The notes: a model not told the origin generated them from the letters alone. Numbered from the whole stretch's first letter, positions 3,189 to 26,168 are shown. The stretch is DNA of 52,121 nt, filler included, from Thelocarpon superellum (GCA_026025795.1; 2 parts of 2 records of this genome joined end to end with filler, not necessarily neighbours in it), one strand, 5' to 3'. Translations and numbers: made by a program.

Positions 3189-5346
3189 TCAATCCGGCCC
3201 TTTCTTCGTAGGACAAGCCTTGCCCAGGGCTGCACTACCACTCCGGATATAGCAGACCTTCTGGCTCACGCAATCCTTCGAGGAGCAGTCCTGCGTCAGG
3301 ACCGAGCTTTTCGTCTCCAGCAAATTGTACGTCTCCACCAGCTCTGGGTGCTGCAGCATCTTCTCCGTGACACCGTGCCAGAAGGATGCATTGAGGGGCG
3401 CCGAGGCGGGCCACGCGCTGTGCGCATCGTACGTTTTGCGCGCGTCGTACTCCAATTTCCACTCGGGCGCGCTGCCCCAGCTGCTTGAGTCTGAGATGTT
3501 GGCGATGTACGTCTCCATGTTGGTGACCTCAAACGTGGCTGCGTCGACTTCGTACAGTCTCCAGCCCGCGTTGAGCCCCGTGAGCGGCGTCACGCTGGGC
3601 CCGATGAAGCCGACGCTCAGGGGCTGGTTGTAGTCGACGTCCGTGGTGTTGCGCGTCGCAGGGCTACCGGTAAGGCTCGAGCTGGCGTAATCGTAGTAGA
3701 TCATGAGCTGGTCTTCGTGCGTGTGCCCCCAGAAGAGGCCGGCGATGGTGGCGGGCGAGAAGCGCCGCACGATGGAGTAGAAAAGCGCGGTGGGATTGGG
3801 AAGCGGGTTGGTGCCATCGTAGCCGGAGAGGACGTGCCCGATGATCCAGACGCGTTGGTCTGCTTGCTCCGATGCCGAGAGCTCGTCGATCAGAAATTGC
3901 AAAACGCCTGAGTTGTCCGGATTCGTGAAATTATAGAAGTTAAACACGTTGTCCTTGTACCAAAAGTCCGTGTTGATGGAAATGATCTTGAGTCCTTGGG
4001 GGGTGGTCATCGCGTAGGCGCCGTAATGCTTCGATGCATATGACGCCGCTGCCCCGTCGACCCATCCGTCCTGCTGCCACAGCGACGAAAGTAGCTCATA
4101 ATTCCATGACATTGCGTTGGCCTTGCCGTCGCCGCGGATGTTGTTCGGGGTATTGTAGGCCACGGGGAGTGAGTCGTGATTACCTAGCGTGGGATAGATG
4201 GGCTTCGGCCATGTTAGCACCCCGGGGCCCGCGTCGGCACTGTCATACGTACGATCTTGCCCAGCCCCGCCTTGAAGGTGGCATACGTCGCGTTTTCCTC
4301 GTACTCGACGTACGCTCGGCTCAGTTGATCGTCGTTGTCATGGCTGACAATATCTCCGGTGAAGATGGAAAAGGCAATCGTGGACATGTTCACCAGCTGA
4401 GGCATTGCGTCAAACACGGACAAGGTCAAATCGGCCGGAGCGTCGCATTCAAAGTATCCAAACCGCGATGCAGGGACCGCCGGGTTCATGGCGTCTGTCT
4501 TGTAATCCTTGTTCGTGCTATACGGTCGACAGCACATGGACTGCGAGCAATTGGCTTCCGACCCGATGTCATACCTGCTCCCAGTCAGTTGTCTCTCTAC
4601 CACATCCCACCGTTTCATCGTACCGAGAGTCGAGATGCCAGTCCGACAGGTGCAGGACGTTGACCGTCTTGCCCGACGGTGGCGGCGCCGTCGTCTTGTT
4701 CGCCGGCTGCGGCCCAAACCATGCGCTTTCGTCGATCTCGATGACCGGAGGCGTATCGCAGACCTTGTAGCGGTAGTGACAGAAGGCGTGCATATCACCC
4801 GTCGCCAGACTCATCTGGGCCAGGAGTTGCGCCCAGTACGGGCCCAGGTGACCCACGCCCCCAAACTCGGACTCGCATGTCGCCGCGGAGATGGAGAACT
4901 TGAACGTGTTGCACGCCCGGATCAGCAGATTCGTCACCGTGGCTACGGGCTGCGTCAGGGCCGCCAGATGCATCACCTCGACCGAGGCCACACACTTTGC
5001 ACATTTCTTCTTAAAGGTCGAGTTCTGCTGGCTGATAGCCACAATGTCCTGGAAGATTAAGTCTTCGATCTGCGCCGTGCTGTCGCGACGTGTCAGCTGG
5101 GACCGCTCCACGTGGGCCGAGGTCAACGACGTACCTGAAGGGTGGCAGAGGCTCCGGCTCCGGCGACGTCTGGTTGTACGGCGGAACAGGACCCGATCCA
5201 TTGTAGTAGAGAGCCGGTCCAGCTCCGTTGGGCACGAGATTCGTCAGCTGCGGATTGAGGGCTTGAGACGAGTTGGTTTGGGAAGACGCGACGTGGGAAA
5301 GCAGACATAGAGACACCAGGCCGTAGATGACGCGTGGAAACACCAT
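3189..5346 (-). CDS. Secreted acid sphingomyelinase / sphingomyelin phosphodiesterase (calcineurin-like metallophosphoesterase)
   Basis: Signal peptide MVFPRVIYGLVSLCLLSHVASS; saposin-like Cys-rich segment (CAKC); metallophosphoesterase motifs HLSDWHLD, FTGDIVSHD, LGNHD, IIGHV, GHTHED spread over exons separated by GT-AG introns. Confidence 0.9.
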
Positions 5347-6302
5347 GATATGCTGCAGGACTTCGACGGTAGATACACTGGAACGGAGTCTTTCCACCTG
5401 CTCGACAACCTGAGCGGCGATGCACCGGTCCATCTTCAACGACACCGCACAGCCCTTCTATATTCTCCAGGTGCAATCAGATCTCATCGCGCCCGGCGGA
5501 ATTCAGCAGCTTCCTGGCTGGGCTTGACGCACGGCGGGCCTCCGCGTCCGAGTGGAGGGAGGGCTCCAGAAGCGACAACGAGATGCGGAGGTCCCCGAAG
5601 CCAATAGGCCATAGGCTTCGGGCCTTGCCTCGTGGGGAGCTACTTCTGGCAGGTGCCGGGGGACAGCCCCGTGCCGAGATTCGGCGAGTTTCTTGGCTAG
5701 ATAGTCGTGCAAGCCAAGACTTCAAGTCGTAGTACGACTTGCGCTTCATGGGCCTTGCTCCGCTGTATCGTACGAATTCCGTCATTTCATACGTTCAGTC
5801 ACAAAGCGTTATCTGTAAACGAATCACGCCCAGCACAGAATCCCCACTTTCGTGGTCCAAGGCGCTGACGCCGGGGTACGAGACAAGTCTAACACCCGAA
5901 TCCATTTGCCCCGGAGTCGAGCGAGGAGGATCCCCAGGTCCGCGTGTGACATTACATGTGCGCCACCGACGAACCGTCTGCTCTCGTTACGTGGTCATCA
6001 ACCTCATTCCGCGCCAGCGTTCCCGTACGGACGTCGCTGGCGGCCATGTCTGCCCACAAGTCTCACGTCAAGAGAGCATTCATGTTCTCGGTCAAGTAAT
6101 ATACACGAAGACTAGTGTCCGGCGAGCTTGGGCAAAATCAACACCCGTCTATAGTCTCTCGTGACCAACCCAATCAGCGGAAAATCGCGGCAAATGCAGA
6201 ATGCAAATCGTGTTTCCGGTGCCATGCAGTCGCCCCGTTTCCTTCCAGGGCCTTCCCAACACCAATCCGATGCTGTCCCAGACTTCAAATGAATGCAGTC
6301 GC

Positions 6303-7856
6303 TCATGCAGACCCCACCGCCGTCACGGCAGGACGGACAGGGGCAAGGGTCGGGGCAGCAAGCACAGGGTCCGCGGTGATCTTGACATCGACCACGGCAG
6401 CATCGTGGGCCCCCTTCCAGATCTCCACCTCGCATCCACCACGGAGCACGGCGATCCGGAGCGTTGACAGGATGTTATGCGCCGCGTTCGAATCTAGAGT
6501 ACTTATCAGCCTCAGGCATATAGAGTTGGCTGGCGCACGTGACTCACGGCTATACACCCCGCCCGTGAACATGGCCGTGGCGTCTTTGCCGATGCCCGAG
6601 CTGATCATGGCTTTCCCGCCAGGGTGCTCATCGAGGAAGGATTGCACGTCATGCACGACGCCGGCGATGACAATCAGGGCCTGTCCCCGCTGGGTCTCGG
6701 TCTGGAAGTCGTCCCACTCCATGACGGGCAACTGCTCCAAGGGAACGCCCCACTGGATGCGTGCCTTCCGCGCGTCGAGCTTCTTCTGCTCCTGTTGGAT
6801 CCGGCCCTTGTCGATCTCGTTCTGTCGGAACTCCTTGAGGTCGTACGCAAGGCCTATCCATTTCCAGCCGGCAATGGCCCACTTGGTCGGGTCGTACTGG
6901 AACCACTCGATGGCATTGCGGTAGTCGGAAGGAAACTCGTGGTGGAAGTTGTGATAGCCTTCACCGAGGGTGACGAGCGCCGTGATGAGATGGTCGCGGG
7001 GCGAATTGCGGTCGTCAAACGGCCGCTCGCCGAGCCAGTGCGCGAGCGAGTTGACACAGAAGGTCGCTTGTTGCACCACGGCCATGCGGAGAATGCCCGC
7101 GTACACGAGCCCACCCCACCAGTCACCCCAGCCCAGACCGCTCACCATCGACGGCACGATCAAGGCCATGACGATGACGATGGCCGAGATGTTTCGATGC
7201 TGCCAGACCACGACGGCGTCGACGTTGAGGTCCGAGATGTCCGTCCGGCCGACGCGCTTCGGGTCTTGTCGCACCAGCAGCCAGCCCAAATGCGAGTAGA
7301 GGAGGCCTTTGCGCACTGAGTAGGGGTCCTTGTCGGTATCGGTGTAGCGGTGGTGGGCCCGATGGTCCCTGGACCACCAGCGAATCGAGCCCTGGACCGC
7401 CCCGGCCCCCACCAACGCCAGGTAGATCTTGAGCGGCGTGGTGGCCGTGTACGACTTGTGTGCCCACAGACGGTGGTAGCCTACCACATCATCAGCGTCA
7501 GCGTCCACAGACCGACGACGAAACGTCCAAGAGCACTTACCAGCCGTGATCCCCGTGCCCGTGATAAAATAGTAAGCCACCGCCCAGACCATCGTCTTCC
7601 ACACGATGGGCGTGTAGAAGGCGGCAATGAAGGCGCCAGCAGGAAAGCCCAGCAGCACCACGACGTTCAGCCAGTTGATGTGCCGGTACCAGTTTGAGGT
7701 CGTCATGGCCGATTGTAGGATGAAGGGGTCGCGGGGCTCCGGTGTCACGGTGTGCTTGGGAGTGGGTAGGGAGCGCACCTCCGGGAAGGAGGCGGCTAGA
7801 CGGAGTTGCGCGGCCATGCCGAGGGACGTCGCGGCAGGTCTTAATGCGCACGGCAC
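6303..7856 (-). CDS. OLE1: Acyl-CoA delta-9 desaturase with fused cytochrome b5 domain
   Basis: His boxes [24 protein letters not shown]; b5 motif HPGG and second heme His (GVYSHSNAA) restored by splicing out 6547-6494; intron 7540-7481. Start codon uncertain (ATG near 7817 is likely). Confidence 0.95.
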
Positions 7857-9015
7857 GATCGGATCAGGAGGAGGAGACCGACGTGCAGATGCGGGTGGGT
7901 AGAAGGGTTACGAGGCCGGACCCAGCTCCATTGTTCATGGACGAGGATGAGGAAAGTAGATGGGGATGAGGCTCAGGGACAGGTGGACTGATGGACCGAC
8001 CGACGGACGTGGTCTGCCGGCTGGACGGGCCAAAGCTGATTGCAGACGACGGACGCCAAGATGGAAAGAGCGCGCCCCAAACGTGCCGGGACGTGAAAAT
8101 TGGGTCGTACGGGCGTGCAGGACGCAGGAAATACTACGGTCCCGGGCATGCTAGCTGCGCTCTCTTTTTTCCCTGACCCTACACACGCTACTAAGGGGAA
8201 AGGAGCAAGAACGCAGCCTAGCCGTCAATTAGGTCGAGTAGAGGGCGGATCGGTTCCACGGATCAAGAATGAGCCCAACAGAGTCGATGGGAAGCGAGCA
8301 CGGCGCTGGTCATCGATCCCGATTCCGGGCGCAGCCATCGATCCTCCGCTGGTCACTGTCCGCGCGGCTTGGCACGGCGTGGTGCTTGGCTCCACATGGG
8401 CGTGGCCAAGCCATCGGACGCATCCGGATGGGTAGAGGCAGACGCAGCCGCATACGCTAGGGGACTTGTAGCAGCAAGCACCGATCGTTGGGACGTCGAC
8501 GGCGCTTGGGGGGGCATACGTGAACGTGGCGTGATCGTTGGCCTCAACTGGCGATTGCGCGTGCAGAGCTGCGCTGCCCTCGGGCCTGCAGGATCTCGGC
8601 TGCGGCCGCGGCAGCGTTTGACCTGCTGCATCGGATCCGTCGCTCGGGGGCTCGCTTGGCACTTATCTTCAGGGTCTCACTCACGCTAGGGGAGCGATTG
8701 GTGGGAAGGTCACCTAAACGTGGGTACGAGGGTCCCTTGGCTCGGCGCTATCCAACAGCCGGTGGTGTCCTTGATCTTGTTCTCGCGACCGGTCCCCACA
8801 TCGACAAGTACTTCGACCGGGACCCGTACCGGTACGAGAATGTGTACCAGTCGCCGTATGAGGCACCTCGTACCTCGACCTGTGGGGCACCGAATCCGTC
8901 GCACAGACCAATAGAATTCCGCCACATGCATGACATCAGTCGATCGACATCGCACGTAGAGGATGATACGAGTGGTACAACCCCCGCCTGTGGTTCTCGC
9001 ATTGGATCGGATCTG

Positions 9016-10760
9016 TCAGATTTCCTTAGGGGATACACGGATGTTGACCCGACATGGCAGGCCCCCCGCCATAGGGAGAGTCAAGCTGTTCCGACTCTCA
9101 CGCTCCCCATCGTGCCCCGCCTCGCCGGACGCCAGGTCCTTGCATTCGATGAAGTCGAAATCCCTCACCAGGCTCGCAATGACAAAGACTGATTGGAGCT
9201 CAGCCATCTGCTTCCCCAGGCAGGTGCGCGGTCCGCCGTTGAAGACGGGAAACTCGGATGGTGACTTCACTTTGACTTTCCTCGCGTGGCCAGCGCCGGC
9301 CGCCGCGTCCTCCAGCCAGCGCTCTGGGCTGAATGCGCTCGCGTCCTCGCCCCAGATATGAGCGGATCGGCCCATGGCCCAGGGCGACCAGATCACAATC
9401 GCATGTGCGGGGAGCATCGTCCCATCCGGGAGGGTGGTGGACGCGGCACATTGCTTCATCTCGATGGGCACCGGAGGATAGAGGCGCAGGCTCTCGTAGA
9501 AGACGGCCAAAGTATAGGGTAGGGCATGTGGCTGAACCGTGTCGAACGAGAGCGTTTCGGGCCGATTGTGGAGCTCGGCGCGCAGTTCACTCACGACACG
9601 TGGATGGCGCATTAGCAGGTAGAAGGTCCAGGTCAAGGCCTGCGCCGTGGTATCCCGGCCAGCAGACAGATAGTTCAGCGCGGCGTCGGCGACCACTTCT
9701 GGGTCATCGATTGCCTCTAGCAAGGACTTGATGAGACTACCCCGCAGCGGGTTCGCCGGCTCCGTCAGGTCACTCGTCTCCCCAGTGACCCCTTCTTGGC
9801 GCGCCTTGATGGCCGTTGCCACGACCAATCGGCCATAGCTCTTGACCTCCTTCAACGCGTGGCGCAATGGCGCGCCGAAGAAGATCTCGGAAAATTGCCA
9901 CAGGGGGTTCTGGAATCGTTCGCCAATGGCCCCTGACGCAAAATCGAAGGCGTGAGAAAAAGGGGAGGATGCTCGCATATTCATCTGCGTGTGGGTCACT
10001 GGTCAGTCCTCGCCGTGCAAGCCCTGCAAGTGCCAGATAAGACGCCTGAGACATACATCATAGGCTGCGCGACCCATCAATCGGGTCGTGAACTCCAGAA
10101 AGACTTCTTCCAAATCGAAGACGCTACGTTGGTGCGCCTGACGACGGAGATCGGTCCTGGTGTCGGCCAGGAAGCGTGGGACAAAGACGTCGATGAGCGT
10201 CTTCAGGTTCGTGGTGCTGAAGAAGCGCAGGCCGGCCTTGCGTTGAATCCTCCATTGCGGCCCATCGACGTTGATGATGCCATGACCTGAACGGCGTGAA
10301 TGGTCAGCCGACTATCCTCTACTCCGGAACGCTTCTCTTCACGCACCAAACAAATCCCATGACCGTTGCCGGATGAAGCCTCCTTTATCGAAGAGAGGTT
10401 CATTCTTGAGCACATAGTCCACGTTCTTTGGGTCGTGAATTACCACGGCTGGAGGCAGCGTGGGTACCGTGATCTCATAGGTCTGGAAGCCAAATTGGCT
10501 CTCACATTTCAAGAGCCATCGCAGCAGCTTGTGTCGCGCCCGGAGAAACAAGATGCCGTTGCCAAAGAGCGGAAGGGTGTTGGGAGCATGACTAACGGTC
10601 ACCCACCACCTCGGATCAGCGATACTCCTACAGCTTGGGCGTCGCCGGCCATGGAGCTTGCTTACGGTAGCTTGCGCCCGTTGCGGCGGATGCCACTCGG
10701 CCGGCCACAGTAGAGATAGACGGGGACCAGGACGAGGGCGAGGTAGATCAAGGGATACAT
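9016..10760 (-). CDS. Cytochrome P450, fatty-acid hydroxylase-like
   Basis: N-terminal anchor MYPLIYLALVLVPVYLY; I-helix AGRDTTA, ExxR (ESLRLYPPVP), PERW, heme motif FNGGPRTCLG; C-terminal SLTLPMAGGLPC; several GT-AG introns. Confidence 0.92.
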
Positions 10761-11830
10761 GGATGGAGCGGTCACGCATGAGCCTCAGCCGGATGCCGAG
10801 CTACAAGTAGACCAGCCCCTCCATGCGTGAACATGCTCCCTCCTCAACGATACGAAATACGATGCGGAGTAATACGGGGCCTAGATTTACGGAATACGAG
10901 ATACGACGTGCGGCGTGCGAAATGTGGGAGGCGTGCGACGCCTCCCTCATGTACTACGAGTAGCGGTACGTGACGTGGGTAAAAGCGGACCGTTCCTGGC
11001 CCCGGGGCCCAGCTGTTAGTGATAGCGTCGGCTCAGCCGATCAGATGCGCTTGACCGGATTAGAATGGGACAAGGAACTGGGCCTCGAACAGCGATCCAT
11101 GACGTGAAGTGGCAGCCAGAGACCTCCACCGATCAAGCAGTCTAACCCATCGCGAGAATAACGCTCCATGCTGGCACACAGGGGTGGTTGAGCTTCTTCC
11201 GTTTTGTTGAGGGGGCAAAGGTTGTGACGCGGCTGGAGTTCGGGCGTGTACGGGCGAGAACAGGATTAAAGCGCTGACGTAGGTAGCCACGACGCACGGG
11301 AATCGGCCAAATGCTGTCCTCGTCCGTCCCATCCCAAAACCCTATACTCCAGATGCGTGCTGCACGAGGATCTCCGCCAACGCTCAGGCCCAGCAGCAAT
11401 GACTCCGGACGAGATGGTGGAATCTAGACTACTTCACCAATCTCCTGCCTGACCTGGCCTATCGGAGATGCTACCTCGGCGACGCCCCCATCTGAGTACT
11501 CATGATACAGGAGTAAGATGGTGGTCAGAGCTCTTCAGCTGTGCCCCTGCCCCCCCGTAGCCGCCCCTTCCCCGGTTAGCGGGAGTCTGTCAGCGGGTGA
11601 CGGAGAATAGTGGGATGAGAACTTGGATCCAGCACCTGGTCGCTGGATTGGTGTAAAGCTTGCATTGCGTATAGTAAGTCCCAAAGAAGACCTCCTCGGT
11701 AGAGGGGAGGGGGTAATCGGAGATATCAGGGCCATGGTCATTCTCGTCGGACGCGGTCATCTCCTCCGTGCTTCTGCCCCGCCGTCCGCCCTTCTCTCCT
11801 CCTCTGCTTCCCCCACCTTGTACCACGAGC

Positions 11831-13175
11831 ATGTCGCCCTCGCGGATCAGCGTGCAGGCCGACGATGAGCCGGCGCATGAGATGAAGCTGGCCATCATGG
11901 GCCTTGGTGCCGAATATCCGCCGTACCAGGCCAAGGCCGCCGACTTGGATGTGATCGCCGCGCGCTTCTATCCGCCGTCCCCCGCGTAAGCTCCCTCGCG
12001 CGACCCCTCGGTGCTACACGCCGGCGCTGCAGACGTCGACGTCGGCAATCCTTGTACTCACAACGCCGACAGCCTCTCCAAAGTCCTCACCATCAATCGT
12101 TACACTGGCATTGAGACTCGATCGTGCATTGGCGACCCCGACCACCCGCTGGCCAATGGAGCGACTGCGCCGAGCATCGCCGAGCTGTGCAAGATCTTCC
12201 TCGACGAAGGCGTGGCCTTGTCCGTGCGGGCGTGTCGCAAGGCACTCAAGGAGTGGGGCGGGTCCCTGGACGACATCACCCATGTCGTCTCCACCACCTG
12301 CACCAATTCCGCCAACCCTGGGTTCGATCACTACGTCATCAAGGAATTGGGCATCTCGGCGAGCGTGGAGAAGGTGCTCCTGCATGGGGTAGGATGCTCG
12401 GGCGGCCTGGCCGCCCTGCGCACGGCCGCCAACCTCGCCCTCGGCGCATCCTTCCAGCGGCGGCCGGCGCGGATCTTGGTGCTCGCGTGCGAGATCTCGT
12501 CAGTGTTGGTCCGCTCGGAGCTGGATCTGATCACGACGGAGCAGAAGATTGCCATCGGCGTGACGCTGTTCAGCGACTGCGCGTCGGCCGTAGTACTCTC
12601 GAACGGCATTGGCCCTGAGCCTCGGGGACCACCCGTCTATTCACTCCGTGGGTGGGATCACGCCATCCTCCCCGACACGGAGGCCGACCTCGGCTTCGAC
12701 GTGGATCCCCATGGTGAGTCGTGCTCATACTGGCGGCGCGAAGATGCGTTGGTGCTGACGAGCGACAGGATGGAAGGTGGTGCTCTCGCCACGGGTTCCA
12801 GAGCTGGCCTCGGCGGCCGTGCCTGCCATGTTCAAGAAACTGGTTCGCTCGATCCCCAGCCTGGAGGAAGAAGATAGCCTTACGGCGGCCGACTTCGACT
12901 GGGCACTTCATCCCGGCGGGCTGACCATTCTCACGGGCGTGCAAGAAACGATGGGCCTGGTACCGGAGCAGCTCCGGGCCAGCTACGACGTCTACGTCAA
13001 TCATGGCAACAGCTCGAGCGCGACCATCTTCAGTGTCATGGACAAGCTCCGGAAGATGGGCATGGGTAAGAAGCACGTGCTGGGCTGTGCCTTTGGCCCT
13101 GGCATCGCCGTCGAGATGGTTGTGCTCGAGCGAATGGACGGCGTCGAAGATATGCCCAGCGAAGCCCTGGACTGA
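11831..13175 (+). CDS. Type III polyketide synthase (chalcone synthase-like)
   Basis: Catalytic triad Cys (GVGCSGG), His (WALHPGG), Asn (HGNSSSAT); TTCT, LFSDCASA, FGPG motifs; introns 11986-12072 and 12714-12768. Confidence 0.95.
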
Positions 13176-13291
13176 GCTGGACGATGATATAGATCCTCGT
13201 GGATAGACTTGGCGTTCAGATCACGGACAACGTAGACACCGCCTTCTCCCCGCCATGGACCAACATCTCCTTCGGCTAGCGTTGTCATTAT

Positions 13292-13738
13292 TCAAACACC
13301 TTCAAGAGCGAAAATGCGACAGGCCCAGAGCCAGCCTAGGAGGACTAGACAAATCGTATGGACGATGAAGTGTAGGATCGGGCCACCTAAGACAGAAGCC
13401 GCTGCTTTCCGTCGATCTGAATCCGGTCCACGGGCCTCACCCACGGACAGATCTCCCGCCCCTCCAATCCGTGCCATCGCCCGGACGATGGGCGCAGCAT
13501 GGTAGATGGCCATGGCCCCAGCGACGTGACAGCTGGTCTCATCAAGGGGCCGAAAGGCGAAGATGGCGGCTATGATGTTGAGTGAGAGCAGCAAGACAGC
13601 ATACTGGCGGATCAACGGGCGGGCATGGGGTTGGGGCGCGGCAAGCTGGACATCGGGTTGCAGGAAAAGGGAGATGCTGGCAGGTACTTCGACGAGCAGA
13701 TGCGCGAGGAATGGAATCGACGTGAACGGCGGAGCCAT
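13292..13738 (-). CDS. Small integral membrane protein of unknown function (~148 aa, about 4 TM)
   Basis: Single ORF with hydrophobic helices (FLAHLLVEVPAS, RQYAVLLLSLNIIAAIF, AGAMAIYH, HFIVHTICLVLL). Confidence 0.7.
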   Translation of the reverse strand: MAPPFTSIPFLAHLLVEVPASISLFLQPDVQLAAPQPHARPLIRQYAVLLLSLNIIAAIFAFRPLDETSCHVAGAMAIYHAAPIVRAMARIGGAGDLSVGEARGPDSDRRKAAASVLGGPILHFIVHTICLVLLGWLWACRIFALEGV

Positions 13739-14130
13739 CACCGCCAGGGTTACACGTCCGGTATGAGTACTGGGTCTCTAAGAACAACAAAATGAAGAGG
13801 AAGCACACGGTCCCTCGCTGGCGTAATTAACTGCGAAGTACGAAGTACACTTTACATCCGAGTACGAGTACGAGTACGAGCGCAGGTACGACGCCGGTAC
13901 GGGCACGAGCATGTGTAGGTACGGTTACGGAGGTAACTATTGGAAGGGGCTGCAGAAATGACCGGACACAGTATCGATTTAGCTATGAATTTCTACGCCT
14001 AACTTGACTACTGCGTCCGGTCACTTCTGCGAACCCCCTCAGGTACACAGTCGCGTGGGCCTCTGCTCCCATCACCATCAACCTCTCTCCGCCCTTCAAT
14101 TCCTATCTATACCCCTCGCGTTATCAGAAT

Positions 14131-15170
14131 ATGCGTCCTCTCTGCCCCCGATACCATTGGTTCGAGATTCACGATCAGACCTGGTAGGATACGAAACACC
14201 CTATGAGCGCGAGGATGTCTTCCCTTCTCAAGAGCTACGTGGCTGACCCTTTGATGCCTCTAGGTTCCCCGACTACTTTCGAGAAAAGGTCCAGGCATGT
14301 CTGACTCTGGCCTGGACCATGCGCGTCCGGCCGCTTCAAAAATGCTCGCCGGCCGATCTGGTAGCCAAAACCCTCCTCTCCGTCCTCCCACCTGGCCAGG
14401 CCGCCGAGTACACTTTCGTCGACTTCTGCGCCGGCGCGGGCGGACCGACGCCCACGATCGAGAAAGTGCTCAACGCTCAATTAAAAAGCGATGCCACCAC
14501 CGACCCAGCCCCCAGCGCACATTTCGTCCTGACGGATCTGCACCCGCACCTTGAGGCGTGGGCGGCGGTAGCCAAGAAGAGCGACAAGTTGGGATATGTT
14601 TCGACGCCGGTCGACGCCTCCGATGCGCCACGCGACCTGCTCAAGGACCGACAGGGTGGCAACAAGGTGTTTCGGCTGTTCTTCCTTGCCTTTCATCACT
14701 TTGATGATCCCTTGGCGGCCACGATCCTCCGGAATTCCATCGAGACGGCGGATGGATTTGCGTGAGTAGTGGCTTCATTGCCCCTGGCTGAGTGCCGCTC
14801 CTGACGCGTTGATAGAATCTTTGAACTGCAGGAACGCACGCTTCTCTCGATGGTCATGGTCACGAGCCTAGGACTGCTCCTCATGCTGATCTCACCCTTC
14901 TATTTCTGGCGCTCGCCTGGTCACCTGTTCTTCACCTACATCATTCCCATCGTGCCCTTTGTGGTGACGTTTGACGGATACATCTCCAGCATCCGGACCA
15001 GAAGCGCAGACGAGATTCTCGCCTTGCTGGAACCGAAGAACGATCCCGACCCGGCAGCGACCTCGCACTTGACGAAGCAATGGAAGTTCGGCGACGGCCG
15101 TGTGATGCATTCGGATCCGATCGGGTACATGAGCTACTTTATCGGGGTGAAGAAGGATGCTCAGGACTGA
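14131..15170 (+). CDS. Class I SAM-dependent methyltransferase-like protein with hydrophobic C-terminal segment
   Basis: Motif I-like FVDFCAGAGGP, motif II-like VLTDLHP, VDAS, FHHFDD; exon 1 MRPLCPRYHWFEIHDQTW; introns 14184-14263 and 14762-14816. Confidence 0.7.
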
Positions 15171-16019
15171 GGGCAAGAATGGCTATCTTGCAGGATACTA
15201 TCTCGGGAGAGCCTCGCAGTCGCGTGATTGAGACGCGGCATTCCTGTATAATAGCTGAGAGAAGCATCTCCGTGTTTCGGTGTTCTGGAAGGGTTTGATC
15301 TCGGCTGCGGGGCGTGAATAAGGACTACGGTAGAGGCGTTGTGCAGAATTGGAGAGATTCTCATAACAGATGTTCCGCAACTAGCCTTCCTCTCACTTGT
15401 TCGTATCTCCATCTCACTCGGCTCGCTCGAATCATGTATGCACACAGTGGTTTTGACATGCCTCTCCGATCCACCTCCGGCGCCTGTACAATGGATTCGA
15501 ACATGCCCCCTGACATACTCTTGTTGTTCTGCAACATCGGTAGTCAAAGTCGACGAACTGATCGAAGACCACCAGAGCACGAACAAAGCAACTAACGACA
15601 GATGTGAAGAAGACAGGAGTGTTGACGGCCCTCTTAGCGCCAGACACAGCGGTGACTGAAGACGAAGAATATGACCCCCTGCAACATGCACAGTAGAACA
15701 GCAGAGCGTAGACGTTAAATAAACAGTCACGCCTGCAGTGCTTCCTCTCTCTTCTTCCACATCCGCAACCATCTCGCTTTCTGACGCTCAGCACCGCTCT
15801 GTTGACCTCTGCCCGTCCCCACACGCTCCATCACAGCTTTGTTGTGCTCGCCCGTCTCCCTCGTATCTCGACTGCTCCAACGACTCGAGCAACTCCAGCT
15901 CGCGAAAGCTCAAGATCCACGCAGGGGAGACCCCTGGAACACTGGACGCCGCCTCATTATCTCCCATCCGAGCCGTGATCCAGCGGGCCCAAGAGTACTC
16001 GAGGAGATCCATCGACGAG

Positions 16020-17382
16020 ATGGAGTCCGTCGCCCATTCAGGGGGCTCTCCAGCTTCTCCTGCTCCTCCTCCCCGTCCGCCTCCATCGTCTCCCCCCGTG
16101 GTCATCATGACCGACGCTTCTTCTTCCGTTCTCTCTTCTCCCTCTCCCTCTCCGTCCACGTCCACCGCCGACCGCGAGCCCGCCACGGGCCCCAGCACCT
16201 CGACGCCCTCCAAGCGTCCCGCGCCGTGGACGATCGAAGCGGACGCGATGATCATCGACGGGGCGCTCCGGGGCGAAACACACGCGATGATCGCCGAGGG
16301 CCTGGTCGGACGTTCCCAGGCTTCCGTGGACCAGCGGCTGACGCGGCTGGTGCACGTGAAGCGCGACACGGTCAAGCTTCCGCTGTGCTGGAAGAAGACG
16401 GAGGCGATCGAGGCCGGCCGCGGCAACATCTTCACCGAGGCGCCCTTCACCGACGAGGAAGACGAGGAGCTCGTCGCCTGGCTGCTGCGTGGCTGCTTCG
16501 GCCTGCGCGGGGAGATCTTCAACGATGGCCATAGTCGCGAGGGACTGCGGAAGCGCCTCAGCGAGCTGGAACAGATGGCGGGGTTCGTCTCCGATCGCGA
16601 GGTGAGTACAATTGGTTCGAGATATAGTGGTCCCTGAAGCGCCCCCTCCTCGCTCCATTCCTCCCTTCCTCCCGTCTCGTGGTGTCCTCCGCTCGCGAGG
16701 GAGTGCTATATAAATGCTGACCTTGTCTCTCTTCTCTCTCTAGACCAAGTTGATCATCCAAGGCGTCGACCAGTGCCGCCTTCCCAGCGGCATCGATCCA
16801 GACTGGGAGGCCATCGCACGCTTCGTGGCGGAGAAGACGGGGAAGGCCGGCCCGTCACCGACGGCCTGCTTCACGGTCGCGACGCTAGAGCTAGGCGGGT
16901 GGGACGGCCAATACCACCCCAACTACGTGCCGTGGCACGACGACCGCCGTGGCTGGACGCAGTATCGAGCTGCGGCGGCGACGAAGAAGAAGGAGGTGAA
17001 GGCGGCGGTGGTGACAGCGGGGTCGGCACCGGCGTCGGGGTCCGGGACGGGGTCGGGGGTCGGGGCCGCTCCTCACGCAACCAGCACGCTGACCACGGCG
17101 ACAGAGAGCGCTCCAGTGGCAGGACCGTCGACGACAGCACCACATGCCGCCCCAGGCGTGCAGGGTGCCATGGCGACGCCAGGACCGGCCTCGGCACCGC
17201 ATGGGTCGGACACGCCGACAGCACCGCCCTCAGCATGGTACCCCGTGGGAGCACCGCCAGGGAGCGCCCCAGCGACGCTTGCGTCGCTGGGTCTGACGCT
17301 CGACGAGATCAACGCGCTCCTCGAGTTCAATCGTGTGGAGGACGACAACCAGACTATCACAGACAATGAGCTTTCCAATTAG
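16020..17382 (+). CDS. Hypothetical protein with degenerate Myb-like repeats and low-complexity tail
   Basis: PWTIEADAMI...IAEGLVGRSQASVDQRL, PFTDEEDEELV...LRKRL, DWEAIARFVAEKTG; intron 16602-16743 joins ORFs 15738..16637 and 16750..17382 in frame. Start uncertain. Confidence 0.6.
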
Positions 17383-20700: not shown

Positions 20701-21255
20701 GGGCGAATGGAGGCCGCGGCGGGGTCGGAGGCCATGGCGGGGGCGGGAGCGGGGGCGGGGGCGGGATCGACATGCTGTAAGAAATGTACCAAGAATGATG
20801 CGCATCGCGTGCTCGGTGGAGTGGGGAGTTGAGCGCGAGCATAATCGCGGAATAATTGGGATCCGGGCAAGCATGATGGCACGACTTGGGACAAGAAGTG
20901 GCCGGGCACGGGATATTGCTCGGATGGGAAAGGAGGCAAATGCCCGCTTCGGGGAAATAATCGTGGAAACTACTATTAGGAGTCCAGAGCGCCTCGGTCG
21001 TTCGCTGTCCGCCCGCCCGGAAGCTCGGTTTGCCGGCCAGAGCGCGTGCTGGGCAAGAGTAAGCAATAAGCAAGATCTCGCCGTTTCGTCCCGGCGACCC
21101 CATCCCTTCCGTTCCCATCCATCATCTCGCCGTCGAGCGTCCACACGCAGTTCCCTCTTGAGGCAACCTTCTCGATCGCCTATCGAAGGAGATCGGTGCA
21201 CTACAGCCGAGCTGCTGGGCTCGTGTGGGTTGCGCGCGGAAGAGAAACAGGCCTC

Positions 21256-23674
21256 ATGGCGGCCACGTCGAGCCTTTGGCGGCGAATCACACGCTACCCG
21301 CGGCATTCTCCATCGGCATCTTCCGCTCCCACCCCAGGTAGTGTAACCGGCCCCGGCGGTGCAGCCGACGCGACCGACGCGACCACCACTGCCCACGCGC
21401 CTGTAATGGCCTCGAGTGTGGGCAACGCCGATAATGGCACGGGACCAGTGGTGCCCCCAGCGGCCTCGTCCGATCCATCCGTGACCAAAGCCTCCAATCC
21501 TTCGTCGGAGAGTTCGGCGCTTGAGGATGCACCCGTCGAGCAATCCGCCCCAGCGGGCCTTCCCGACCCGACCCAACCGACGACTGAGACCGAGACGACA
21601 GAAAAAGGTCCGGCCAATGGCCAGGTTCCAGAAGATGAGAAACCTCGCCCCACCGACCCAGGCGCCGCCCCGGGAACCAAGGGCGAGGAGCAAGAAGACG
21701 TCGAAGACACCTCACAGTATCCGGCGGGATGGGCACTGGCTGTCTTGACTTTTGGCTTAGCCATGGCCATCTTTGTGGTACGGTCGGGAACAGGGCCTTT
21801 CATTGCGTCATATCCGCTGACAATTTCCGTCACAGGTGGCCCTGGACAACACCATCATCGGTGCGTGTCCACCGACTCTAGACCAATTGGCCTACCGTGG
21901 TTGCTGACCATGTGCAGCGACGGCGATTCCCAAAATCACCACCGTCTTCGATTCGCTCGACGATGTGGGCTGGTATGGCTCGTCGTATCTCCTCACGACG
22001 ACGTCGCTACAGCCGTCTTTTGGCAAGATCTACGCCAACTTCAACGTCAAGTGGACCTATCTCATCGCACTGTCAATTTTCGAACGTGCGTTGAGTCTAT
22101 CCTTGTTGCTTCCCGTGCCTGGCTGACGCATGCAGTGGGGTCGATTATCTGTGCCGCGGCGACCAGCTCGCAGATGCTCATCGTCGGACGCGCCGTTGCT
22201 GGCGCCGGCGCGTCCGCCATTTTCTCGGGGGGCATGACAATCGTCGGTTTCTCGGTGCCGTTGAAGAAGAGGCCCATCTATATTGCTCTCCTCTCGAGCA
22301 TGTTTGGCATCTCCTCCGTCATCGGACCCATCCTCGGAGGCGCCCTGACCGACAAAGCTACCTGGAGATGGTACGTGGATCAAGTGCCCCTCGGCAGCGA
22401 GATCAGCTAACGAATACAGGTGTTTCTGGGTGCGTCACGACATGCTGCGTGATTGATCGATACAACTGACCACGCTCTGCAGATCAATCTCCCATTTGGA
22501 GGCATTGCTCTCGCCACGGTGTTCTTATTCTTCAAGAACCCGAAGCGGAGGGTGAACAACCTCAGCTTGGGCCAGAAGATTCAGGAGATTGACTTGCTCG
22601 GGGCCGCCTTTCTCATCTGCGGTATCGTGTGCCTCTTGCTTGCGCTGCAATGGGGAGGGACCACGTACGCCTGGTCCGACTCCAAAGTGTGGGGCTGCAT
22701 CATCGGGGCGGGGTTGATCATCCTCGTTTTCATCGCGCTTCAATTCTATCGTGGCGATCGAGCGACCATTCCCCCGCGCATCTTCCTCCGGCAACGAAGT
22801 GTATTTTGGAGCAGTTGGTATTCGTGCTTCTTGGTCATGGGCATCTACACGTGAGTGCGTCAGCTTACTGGATGCCATGGTTGCTGACTGCGCCCCTTAG
22901 TCACATCTTCTACCTGCCCTTTTACTTTCAGGTGAAGGGTACTCCTCATGGGCGTCTCGGCCGCGGTACTGACTGGTGCAGGCGGTGAAAGGAACGACGG
23001 CGGAGGGCTCCGGGATCCGATCGATTCCCTACCTGACCAGCATCACCCTCTCGTCCATCGCCATTGGGGGTTCCATTACGGCACTTGGGTGGTATGTGCC
23101 GTTCATGTGGGCCGGCGCCGCCGTCTTCACCGTGGGATGCGGGCTGCTGTACACACTCCAGGTGGACAGTTACGCGGGCAAGTGGATCGGATACCAGCTT
23201 CTGGCCGGGTTTGGTGCGGGCGCCAGTATCCAGATACCCTTCGTCGCGGTCCAGACGGTGCTGAGTTCGACGGACATGCCATCGGGCAACGCCATCGCCA
23301 TCTTCTTCAACACGCTCGGGGGCGCTATCTCCATCTCGGTGGCGCAGAATGTCTTCTCCAACACGCTCACGCAGGAGATTCCCAAGCACACCGTCGGTGT
23401 CGACGCCGGCAAAATCATCTCCGCCGGCGCGACGCACGTGCGCGAGATCACCGCGGCCAGCCAGCTCAATGGTGTCTTGATCGCCTACGACATCGCCATT
23501 CAAAAGGCCTTTATTCTGCCTATCGCCGTCGGTGGCATTGCCTTGATCTGTTCATTCTTCGTGAGGCCTTCTCCTCTCCTTCCCCCTCGTGGCACCAACT
23601 CAGGCTAATTCCTTCGTGCACAGATGGAATGGAAGAGCGTCAAGGGCAAGAAGATTCTCCCTCCGGGAGCGTAG
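21256..23674 (+). CDS. MFS drug:H+ antiporter (DHA2, 14-TMS) efflux transporter
   Basis: [68 protein letters not shown]; many short introns. Start at 21256 or 21406. Confidence 0.92.
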
Positions 23675-26068: not shown

Positions 26069-26168
26069 NNNNNNNNNNNNNNNNNNNNNNNNNNNNNNNN
26101 NNNNNNNNNNNNTTAATTAATTAANNNNNNNNNNNNNNNNNNNNNNNNNNNNNNNNNNNNNNNNNNNN
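26069..26168. other. Assembly spacer: N44-TTAATTAATTAA-N44
   Basis: Exactly 100 bp and symmetric; the central 12-mer gives stops in all six frames, typical of an artificial contig linker. Confidence 0.95.

Follow-up and report, generated by a model that had tools for sequence, protein, structure and literature searches.

A four-gene set around an ORAS-like type III polyketide synthase in Thelocarpon superellum: a probable ancestral Pezizomycotina cluster for a modified phenolic lipid

Genes at the Thelocarpon superellum locus

The window analysed here is a 52,121-nucleotide stretch of fungal DNA (60% GC) from Thelocarpon superellum (GCA_026025795.1), positions 1-26068 of which are a single contig (C178) of the 19.15 Mb assembly. 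Five consecutive intact genes, in which every intron is GT-AG, lie at 6303-15170 (Table 1): an OLE1-type acyl-coenzyme A (CoA) desaturase, a cytochrome P450 (P450), a type III polyketide synthase (PKS), a small membrane protein and a methyltransferase-like protein. The original prediction of five consecutive genes in about 9 kb, with the P450 and an intact PKS head-to-head, agrees with the intact gene models and with the 1070 bp that separate this pair. It had also proposed that all five form one lipid-polyketide cluster, and on this point our results divide: the P450, PKS, membrane protein and methyltransferase make up a four-gene core that is linked across distant fungi, whereas linkage of the desaturase was found in one congener only. 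We consider that the four-gene core is probably an ancestral biosynthetic cluster of the Pezizomycotina, for a modified phenolic lipid.

Table 1. Features of the Thelocarpon superellum locus (window positions).
Feature	Length	Position	Strand	Exons	Remarks
OLE1-type acyl-CoA desaturase	466 aa	6303..7817	minus	7817-7541, 7480-6548, 6493-6303	PF00487, PF00173
Cytochrome P450	512 aa	9016..10760	minus	10760-10666, 10591-10347, 10286-10057, 9984-9016	conserved core
Divergent P450-PKS promoter		10761..11830			two CCTCGG (FarA/Ctf1-type) sites, at 11474 and 11694
ORAS-like type III PKS	400 aa	11831..13175	plus	11831-11985, 12073-12713, 12769-13175	conserved core
Four-helix membrane protein	148 aa	13292..13738	minus		conserved H13, E17, Y46, H80; conserved core
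Class I S-adenosylmethionine-dependent methyltransferase-like protein	301 aa	14131..15170	plus	14131-14183, 14264-14761, 14816-15170	conserved core

When the window proteins were searched, Pfam confirmed OLE1, the P450 and the PKS, and gave no match for the membrane protein or the methyltransferase. The spliced models of OLE1 and the PKS are letter-for-letter identical to the database proteins P0241 and P0001. In their own genome the PKS, membrane protein and methyltransferase each have one match, and the second-best P450 has 34% identity, meaning that the core genes are apparently single-copy in this 19 Mb genome.

Judged by its sequence, the window PKS is an ORAS-like fungal type III enzyme. 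It has both chalcone synthase domains (PF00195 and PF02797) and the triad C160/H313/N346. Among solved structures, the entries for the Neurospora pentaketide synthase come closest (E 9e-144, versus 1e-90 for CsyB), an enzyme named ORAS in the accessible text of PMC6274091. With an offset of 8 from ORAS to the window PKS, Cys120 aligns with C128; the equivalents of F252 and S340 are retained, while L26, flagged as a tunnel-cap residue in the accessible part of the preprint 10.1101/2024.11.25.625244, is replaced by Ala. Lecanoromycetes, Chaetothyriales and Lichinomycetes sensu lato contain homologs at 68-81%, measured over the region searched. According to the same parts of these two sources, ORAS accepts C2-C24 acyl-CoAs and forms resorcinols from C10-C24 starters (PMC6274091), and specificity differs between close relatives (10.1101/2024.11.25.625244).

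The P450 carries the motifs AGRDTT, ExxR and PERW and the heme Cys, a set which we take to resemble the fatty-acid omega-hydroxylase clans (CYP52, CYP86/94/704, CYP544); no named CYP family was among the relatives returned. Its orthologs are 45-53% identical in ascomycetes, with relatives at 34-38% in chytrids and further ones in other early fungi and protists. The membrane protein is modelled as a four-helix bundle (predicted local distance difference test, pLDDT, 89), and its four conserved residues (Table 1) suggest a catalytic or metal site. For this protein neither Pfam (at the cut-off) nor Foldseek (at E 0.001) returned a match, and nothing clear came out of the wide structure search; Atlas scores were 0.88 for DUF7704 and 0.77 for Erg28, and the comparison with EBP (EXPERA; Z 7.3, root-mean-square deviation (rmsd) 4.6, 124 aligned) lies inside helical-bundle noise.

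Linkage of the core and of the desaturase

Linkage was measured around relatives of the PKS in metagenomes, using the 80 best of 132 confirmed loci, which fall into 56 groups at 90% DNA identity. Many of the contigs are short, and we therefore rely mostly on the 26 non-redundant groups in which the PKS is flanked on each side by 2.5 kb or more. The membrane protein was counted by profile and the P450 at a 40% identity cut-off; the loci are not independent, many being of lichen origin. Of the 26 flanked groups, 19 have the methyltransferase near the PKS, 17 the P450 and 15 the membrane protein; 9 have all three partners, 24 have at least one and 2 have none. The chance of finding a single-copy gene within 10 kb of the PKS is about 0.05-0.1%, as against 15-19 of 26 for the core partners. 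When all 56 groups are taken together, 22 have the P450 near the PKS, 24 the membrane protein, 20 the methyltransferase and none OLE1. Conserved synteny thus holds for these three partners and not for the desaturase.

The partners are present across both deep halves of the PKS tree, which was midpoint-rooted and built without an outgroup and without reference sequences of the published clades. Six groups, all with a Chaetothyriales-like PKS, have exactly the order of the window (L039, L044, L057, L062, L065, L083), and four others retain the set in a rearranged order (L017, L055, L045, L050). In L017 and L055 all three partners are upstream of the PKS, rearranged and with a hydrolase inserted; the other neighbours of these two loci (a short-chain reductase, BUD22) resemble the published Botrytis BPKS locus, from which we infer that they belong to Leotiomycetes. 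Lecanoromycete-like loci keep the P450 and the methyltransferase, the latter in either orientation, and the PEX11-adjacent loci (L019, L028, L033) have the membrane protein alone or no partner. Among named genomes, the methyltransferase and PKS of Piccolia are consecutive in locus tags and accessions, and the P450 and PKS locus tags of Trizodia are consecutive. Outside the core the neighbours vary, with a palmitoyltransferase and an ATP synthase in L039 and L083, a formin in L045 and ERCC4 in L017, and window DNA outside 9000-15250 has almost no match to the loci. No domains of other cluster proteins were found fused to the listed homologs.

The hydrolase of L017 (6753-7613) and L055 (7204-8070) is of the alpha/beta type, lies between the P450 and the membrane protein, and is a possible lineage-specific accessory, as OLE1 is in the window. 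Several candidates were set aside. The EMP24, Myb-like, 14-3-3 and MFS (major facilitator superfamily) flanking genes were dropped as members, no ortholog of theirs recurring with the PKS in the 80 loci, and the P450 matches in L028, L033 and L034 are of other families and fall below the identity cut-off.

The desaturase was likewise rejected as a conserved member. Neither tblastn nor a 120-sequence OLE1 profile (17,768 open reading frames (ORFs), E up to 1) found one in any of the 80 loci, among them 21 non-redundant groups that reach 6.5 kb or further upstream of the PKS, and a lone tblastx signal (L012) was an off-frame fragment. Of the 31 clade-1 cluster families published, one contains a fatty acid desaturase, according to the accessible part of the PMC6985275 supplement. 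Linked OLE1 was found in Thelocarpon superellum and its congener T. impressellum only; the protein of the latter (P0242) is on the same contig as the PKS, two accession numbers apart and with the same spacing as in the window.

The window protein, with its three His boxes and fused cytochrome b5 domain, is by sequence an OLE1-type desaturase, whose delta-9 regiospecificity is putative in view of the clade-specific changes at 122, 160, 190 and 225. A second OLE1 copy in the same genome, on contig C102, is 74% identical. In a tree of 35 sequences the window copy falls into a long-branch clade with P0242 and P0319 (support 100/99) and the C102 copy groups among canonical OLE1, which indicates that the window copy is not the housekeeping one. 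All three members of the divergent clade carry M160L and Q245R, each seen in none of 117 canonical sequences, and E122Q, seen in 6 of the 117; the clade also departs from the majority at 190 and at 225-227. Its Q122 and L160 are the residues of human SCD1, and positions 122 and 160 presumably line the acyl tunnel. The third member, P0319, is 82% identical and lies on a 3.18 Mb contig. That the duplicated Thelocarpon OLE1 is a recent recruit supplying an unsaturated starter is, in our estimate, a little short of an even chance; we go no higher because a generally shared Thelocarpon gene order is an alternative explanation of the T. impressellum linkage. An unsaturated product is plausible for the genus Thelocarpon only.

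The methyltransferase and comparable systems

The methyltransferase has many homologs across Leotiomycetes, Sordariomycetes and Lecanoromycetes, none with a Pfam match to a methyltransferase family, and we found no solved structure related to it by sequence. A class I S-adenosylmethionine (SAM) fold is seen in the model (pLDDT 92) of P0200, a homolog whose identity over exon 2 is 51%. BpumL (Z 15.1, rmsd 3.6, 216 aligned) and NovO (Z 14.9, rmsd 3.2, 210 aligned) head the structure matches of this model, tied with many others, and the rows of that comparison are all SAM-methyltransferase-fold proteins. The window protein has the glycine-rich motif I, the acidic residue after beta-2 and an inserted hydrophobic helical hairpin. 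The model and the motifs together argue for a class I SAM-dependent methyltransferase, in keeping with the earlier methyltransferase-like call.

Close bacterial homologs form a Pfam-less family (L088-L117) present in 33 of 151 Myxococcota genomes. No neighbour was common to the 30 loci of these homologs, and a scan of prokaryotic genomes led to one locus only. These homologs weakly match NCBIfam PRK06202, a family found in 18 of the 151 genomes, where 5 of the 18 loci are operons of a PKS, a methyltransferase and a flavin adenine dinucleotide (FAD) oxidoreductase. The fungal methyltransferase profile matched this operon family at 90.5%, UbiE at 13.7% and PF00891 members at 2.2%; by way of the bacterial intermediates the match to the operon family was 99.2%, and the intermediates themselves gave 137, 47 and 67 against the operon family, UbiE and PF00891 members, respectively. 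Among the three families tested, with HidA outside the comparison, the PKS-operon family therefore appears to be the nearest to the fungal methyltransferase, as a distant relative.

The five PRK06202 operons have the gene set of hidABC, the hierridin cluster, and of a Planctomycetota alkylresorcinol operon. Both of the latter resemble the fungal core in joining an alkylresorcinol synthase to a class I methyltransferase and an oxidase, as described in the accessible parts of PMC6836626 and PMC10896814. The fungal core differs in that the P450 and the four-helix membrane protein replace the FAD oxidoreductase, and the fungal methyltransferase differs from the bacterial operon family in its extra hydrophobic hairpin. 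No FAD oxidoreductase was found among the five window genes or the recurring neighbour families, for which reason the core is not a member of the hid type. Since the Gimesia enzyme is probably a C-methyltransferase and HidA methylates at O (accessible part of PMC10896814), the site of fungal methylation may be either O or C. By analogy, the best reading is that the fungal core would work like the hid clusters, as a counterpart of the hierridin rather than the sorgoleone type.

The sorgoleone pathway proceeds from a long-chain acyl-CoA starter through an alkylresorcinol synthase to methylation and P450 oxidation, and the original prediction had likened the window to this enzyme set. The likeness is weak, and the window genes are not a set of that type: the window desaturase is OLE1-type and not conserved with the cluster, and the methyltransferase, in view of its poor match to PF00891 members, is not of the Methyltransf_2 type. 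The soppiline and scirpilin clusters, as far as their accessible descriptions go, also join a fungal type III PKS to a P450 and lead to alkylresorcinols, but they use a partner reducing type I PKS, whereas the window contig is without any ORF above 550 codons. Closest of all to the window PKS are ORAS and BPKS (clade 1), with the closest solved structure and shared equivalents of the triad, Cys120, F252 and S340; for these the characterisation is limited to the PKS enzymes, and the window PKS differs from them in the Ala at L26. The accessible part of PMC6985275 places a P450 in roughly one third of the clade-1 cluster families, and there BPKS is flanked by a P450, an enoyl reductase and a transcription factor. 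The methyltransferase and membrane protein would be invisible in the available tables of that study, which are Pfam-based, because both genes are Pfam-less.

The literature covered, which leaves out most subscription journals and supplements that may show the same neighbours, gave no account of the four-gene core; the accessible parts of PMC9495618, PMC6337363, PMC10608907, PMC9920419 and the preprint 10.1101/2025.01.02.631048 contain no description of the set. The idea of an uncharacterised pathway, as originally put forward, stands to this extent, without the desaturase and the unsaturation, which lie outside the conserved set.

Proposed pathway, regulation and alternatives

The core would probably make a methylated, oxidised long-chain alkylresorcinol by an ancestral four-gene pathway; the linkage and the enzyme classes are observed, and the chemistry is inferred throughout. 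It is well supported by homology that the ORAS-like PKS would extend a long-chain fatty acyl-CoA with malonyl-CoA to an alkylresorcinol or alkylresorcylic acid. The methyltransferase, associated with the membrane, would then methylate the ring at O or C, and the P450 would hydroxylate the ring or the chain end. The four-helix protein might, more speculatively, handle the lipid in the membrane or catalyse a further step. In Thelocarpon only, the duplicated OLE1 beside the core could perhaps, with a likelihood slightly below one half, supply an unsaturated starter. The product of the core is thus probably a modified long-chain phenolic lipid, the structure of which is predicted only in outline.

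CCTCGG is the FarA/Ctf1 site of fatty-acid genes in the accessible part of PMC5068947. It occurs in 13 of 17 P450-PKS intergenic regions with enough flank, where 5.6 were expected from flanking DNA, and is within the top three of all 6-mers in 21 such regions, so that fatty acids probably induce the P450-PKS pair through FarA-type sites. A 7-mer, CCCAACA, also turned up in 14 of these 21, in many cases 20-115 bases ahead of the start of the PKS; the window lacks it.

Several results weigh against a four-gene pathway. The cluster is often incomplete, with at least one partner missing in 17 of the 26 flanked groups and all missing in two; Lecanoromycete-like loci have no membrane protein within 10 kb of the PKS, one methyltransferase of Pleopsidium is on a different short contig from the PKS, and the ORAS locus itself has no obvious cluster in the accessible part of PMC6985275. 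The P450 family reaches chytrids and protists and so has roles without this PKS. No type III PKS lies within 1.5 kb of the 30 closest bacterial methyltransferase homologs, and the operon methyltransferase family matches UbiE at 99%, which makes it a central family. CCTCGG, finally, shows no enrichment ahead of the other two core genes, with 3 of 20 for the methyltransferase and 3 of 19 for the membrane protein.

One alternative is that the genes do not share a pathway. They might be held together by old gene order or shared fatty-acid regulation and have separate roles, the PKS making plain alkylresorcinols, the P450 being a fatty-acid hydroxylase and the methyltransferase having another substrate. 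The one-by-one loss of partners in many loci, the occurrence of the P450 and methyltransferase families in organisms without seen linkage, and the restriction of the shared motif to the P450-PKS promoter all fit such an arrangement, which we nevertheless regard as improbable: three unrelated genes stay with the PKS despite inversions and insertions while the outer neighbours all change, and among the families tested it is PKS-operon enzymes that come nearest to the methyltransferase. Distinctly improbable, too, is a proposal drawn from plant sporopollenin, where LAP5/6 act with CYP704B. The P450 would act before the PKS, hydroxylating the fatty-acid chain end, and the PKS would then form bifunctional monomers that end up in a polymer of the wall or spore coat, not in a free small molecule. 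The presumed likeness of the P450 to omega-hydroxylase clans, the FarA-type sites in the shared promoter and the apparently single-copy core are compatible with it, but the conserved set has no TKPR-like reductase and no acyl-CoA synthetase, and ring methylation would be expected to block cross-links.

A larger cluster is a further alternative, in which all five genes serve a single pathway and the desaturase is a true member that supplies or modifies the unsaturated starter. The long-branch position of the window OLE1 as a second copy beside a canonical one, the equal OLE1-PKS spacing in T. impressellum and clade changes that are rare or absent in canonical sequences speak for it, as does the acceptance of unsaturated fatty acids by SsArs (accessible part of PMC6985275). 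We consider it rather unlikely, given the absence of the desaturase from all 80 loci, the 21 groups with long upstream sequence included, its presence in the single published clade-1 family mentioned above, and the possibility that linkage in one congener is mere shared gene order. The ancestral four-gene pathway remains our preferred reading. Within it, a more specific and unlikely version is that the core is the fungal route to hierridin-type lipids, that is, O-methylated, ring-hydroxylated very-long-chain alkylphenols; the methyltransferase would be a membrane-anchored offshoot of HidA-like enzymes, the P450 would stand in HidB's place, and the four-helix protein would be a new enzyme family. 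We raise this version because hierridin was first isolated from a Ramalina lichen, according to the accessible part of PMC6836626.

Few native products of fungal type III PKSs are known, and the natural functions of these enzymes are called elusive in the accessible part of the 2024 preprint 10.1101/2024.11.25.625244. The core offers a defined four-gene set for reconstitution, in which two Pfam-less genes travel with the PKS and P450 over several fungal classes, as well as candidate genes for the methylated alkylphenols known from lichens. If the proposed pathway is true, it would give first functions to two uncharacterised protein families; if the hierridin version is true, it would define what the most widespread clade of fungal type III PKSs makes natively, and Thelocarpon would add a re-purposed desaturase.

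Other genes and features of the window were also noted. An acid sphingomyelinase-like gene (3192-5457, minus) lies about 6.5 kb upstream of the PKS, and a homolog is found 7-10 kb from the PKS, on either side, in 5 of the 80 loci (L021, L022, L056, L060, L082); it may be a loose lipid-metabolism neighbour or reflect old gene order. Beyond the methyltransferase, a gene at 15723-17379 (plus) shows Myb/SANT-like Trp repeats by eye, has no Pfam match and is not conserved in the 80 loci. An MFS drug-efflux-type transporter (21070-23605, plus), 6 kb beyond the methyltransferase, has a distant relative (28%) in L050 only among these loci and is outside the conserved set. Separate contigs are joined at 26069-26168, where two runs of 44 N are separated by 12 bases, and a long trinucleotide repeat occupies 160-520, at the contig start.

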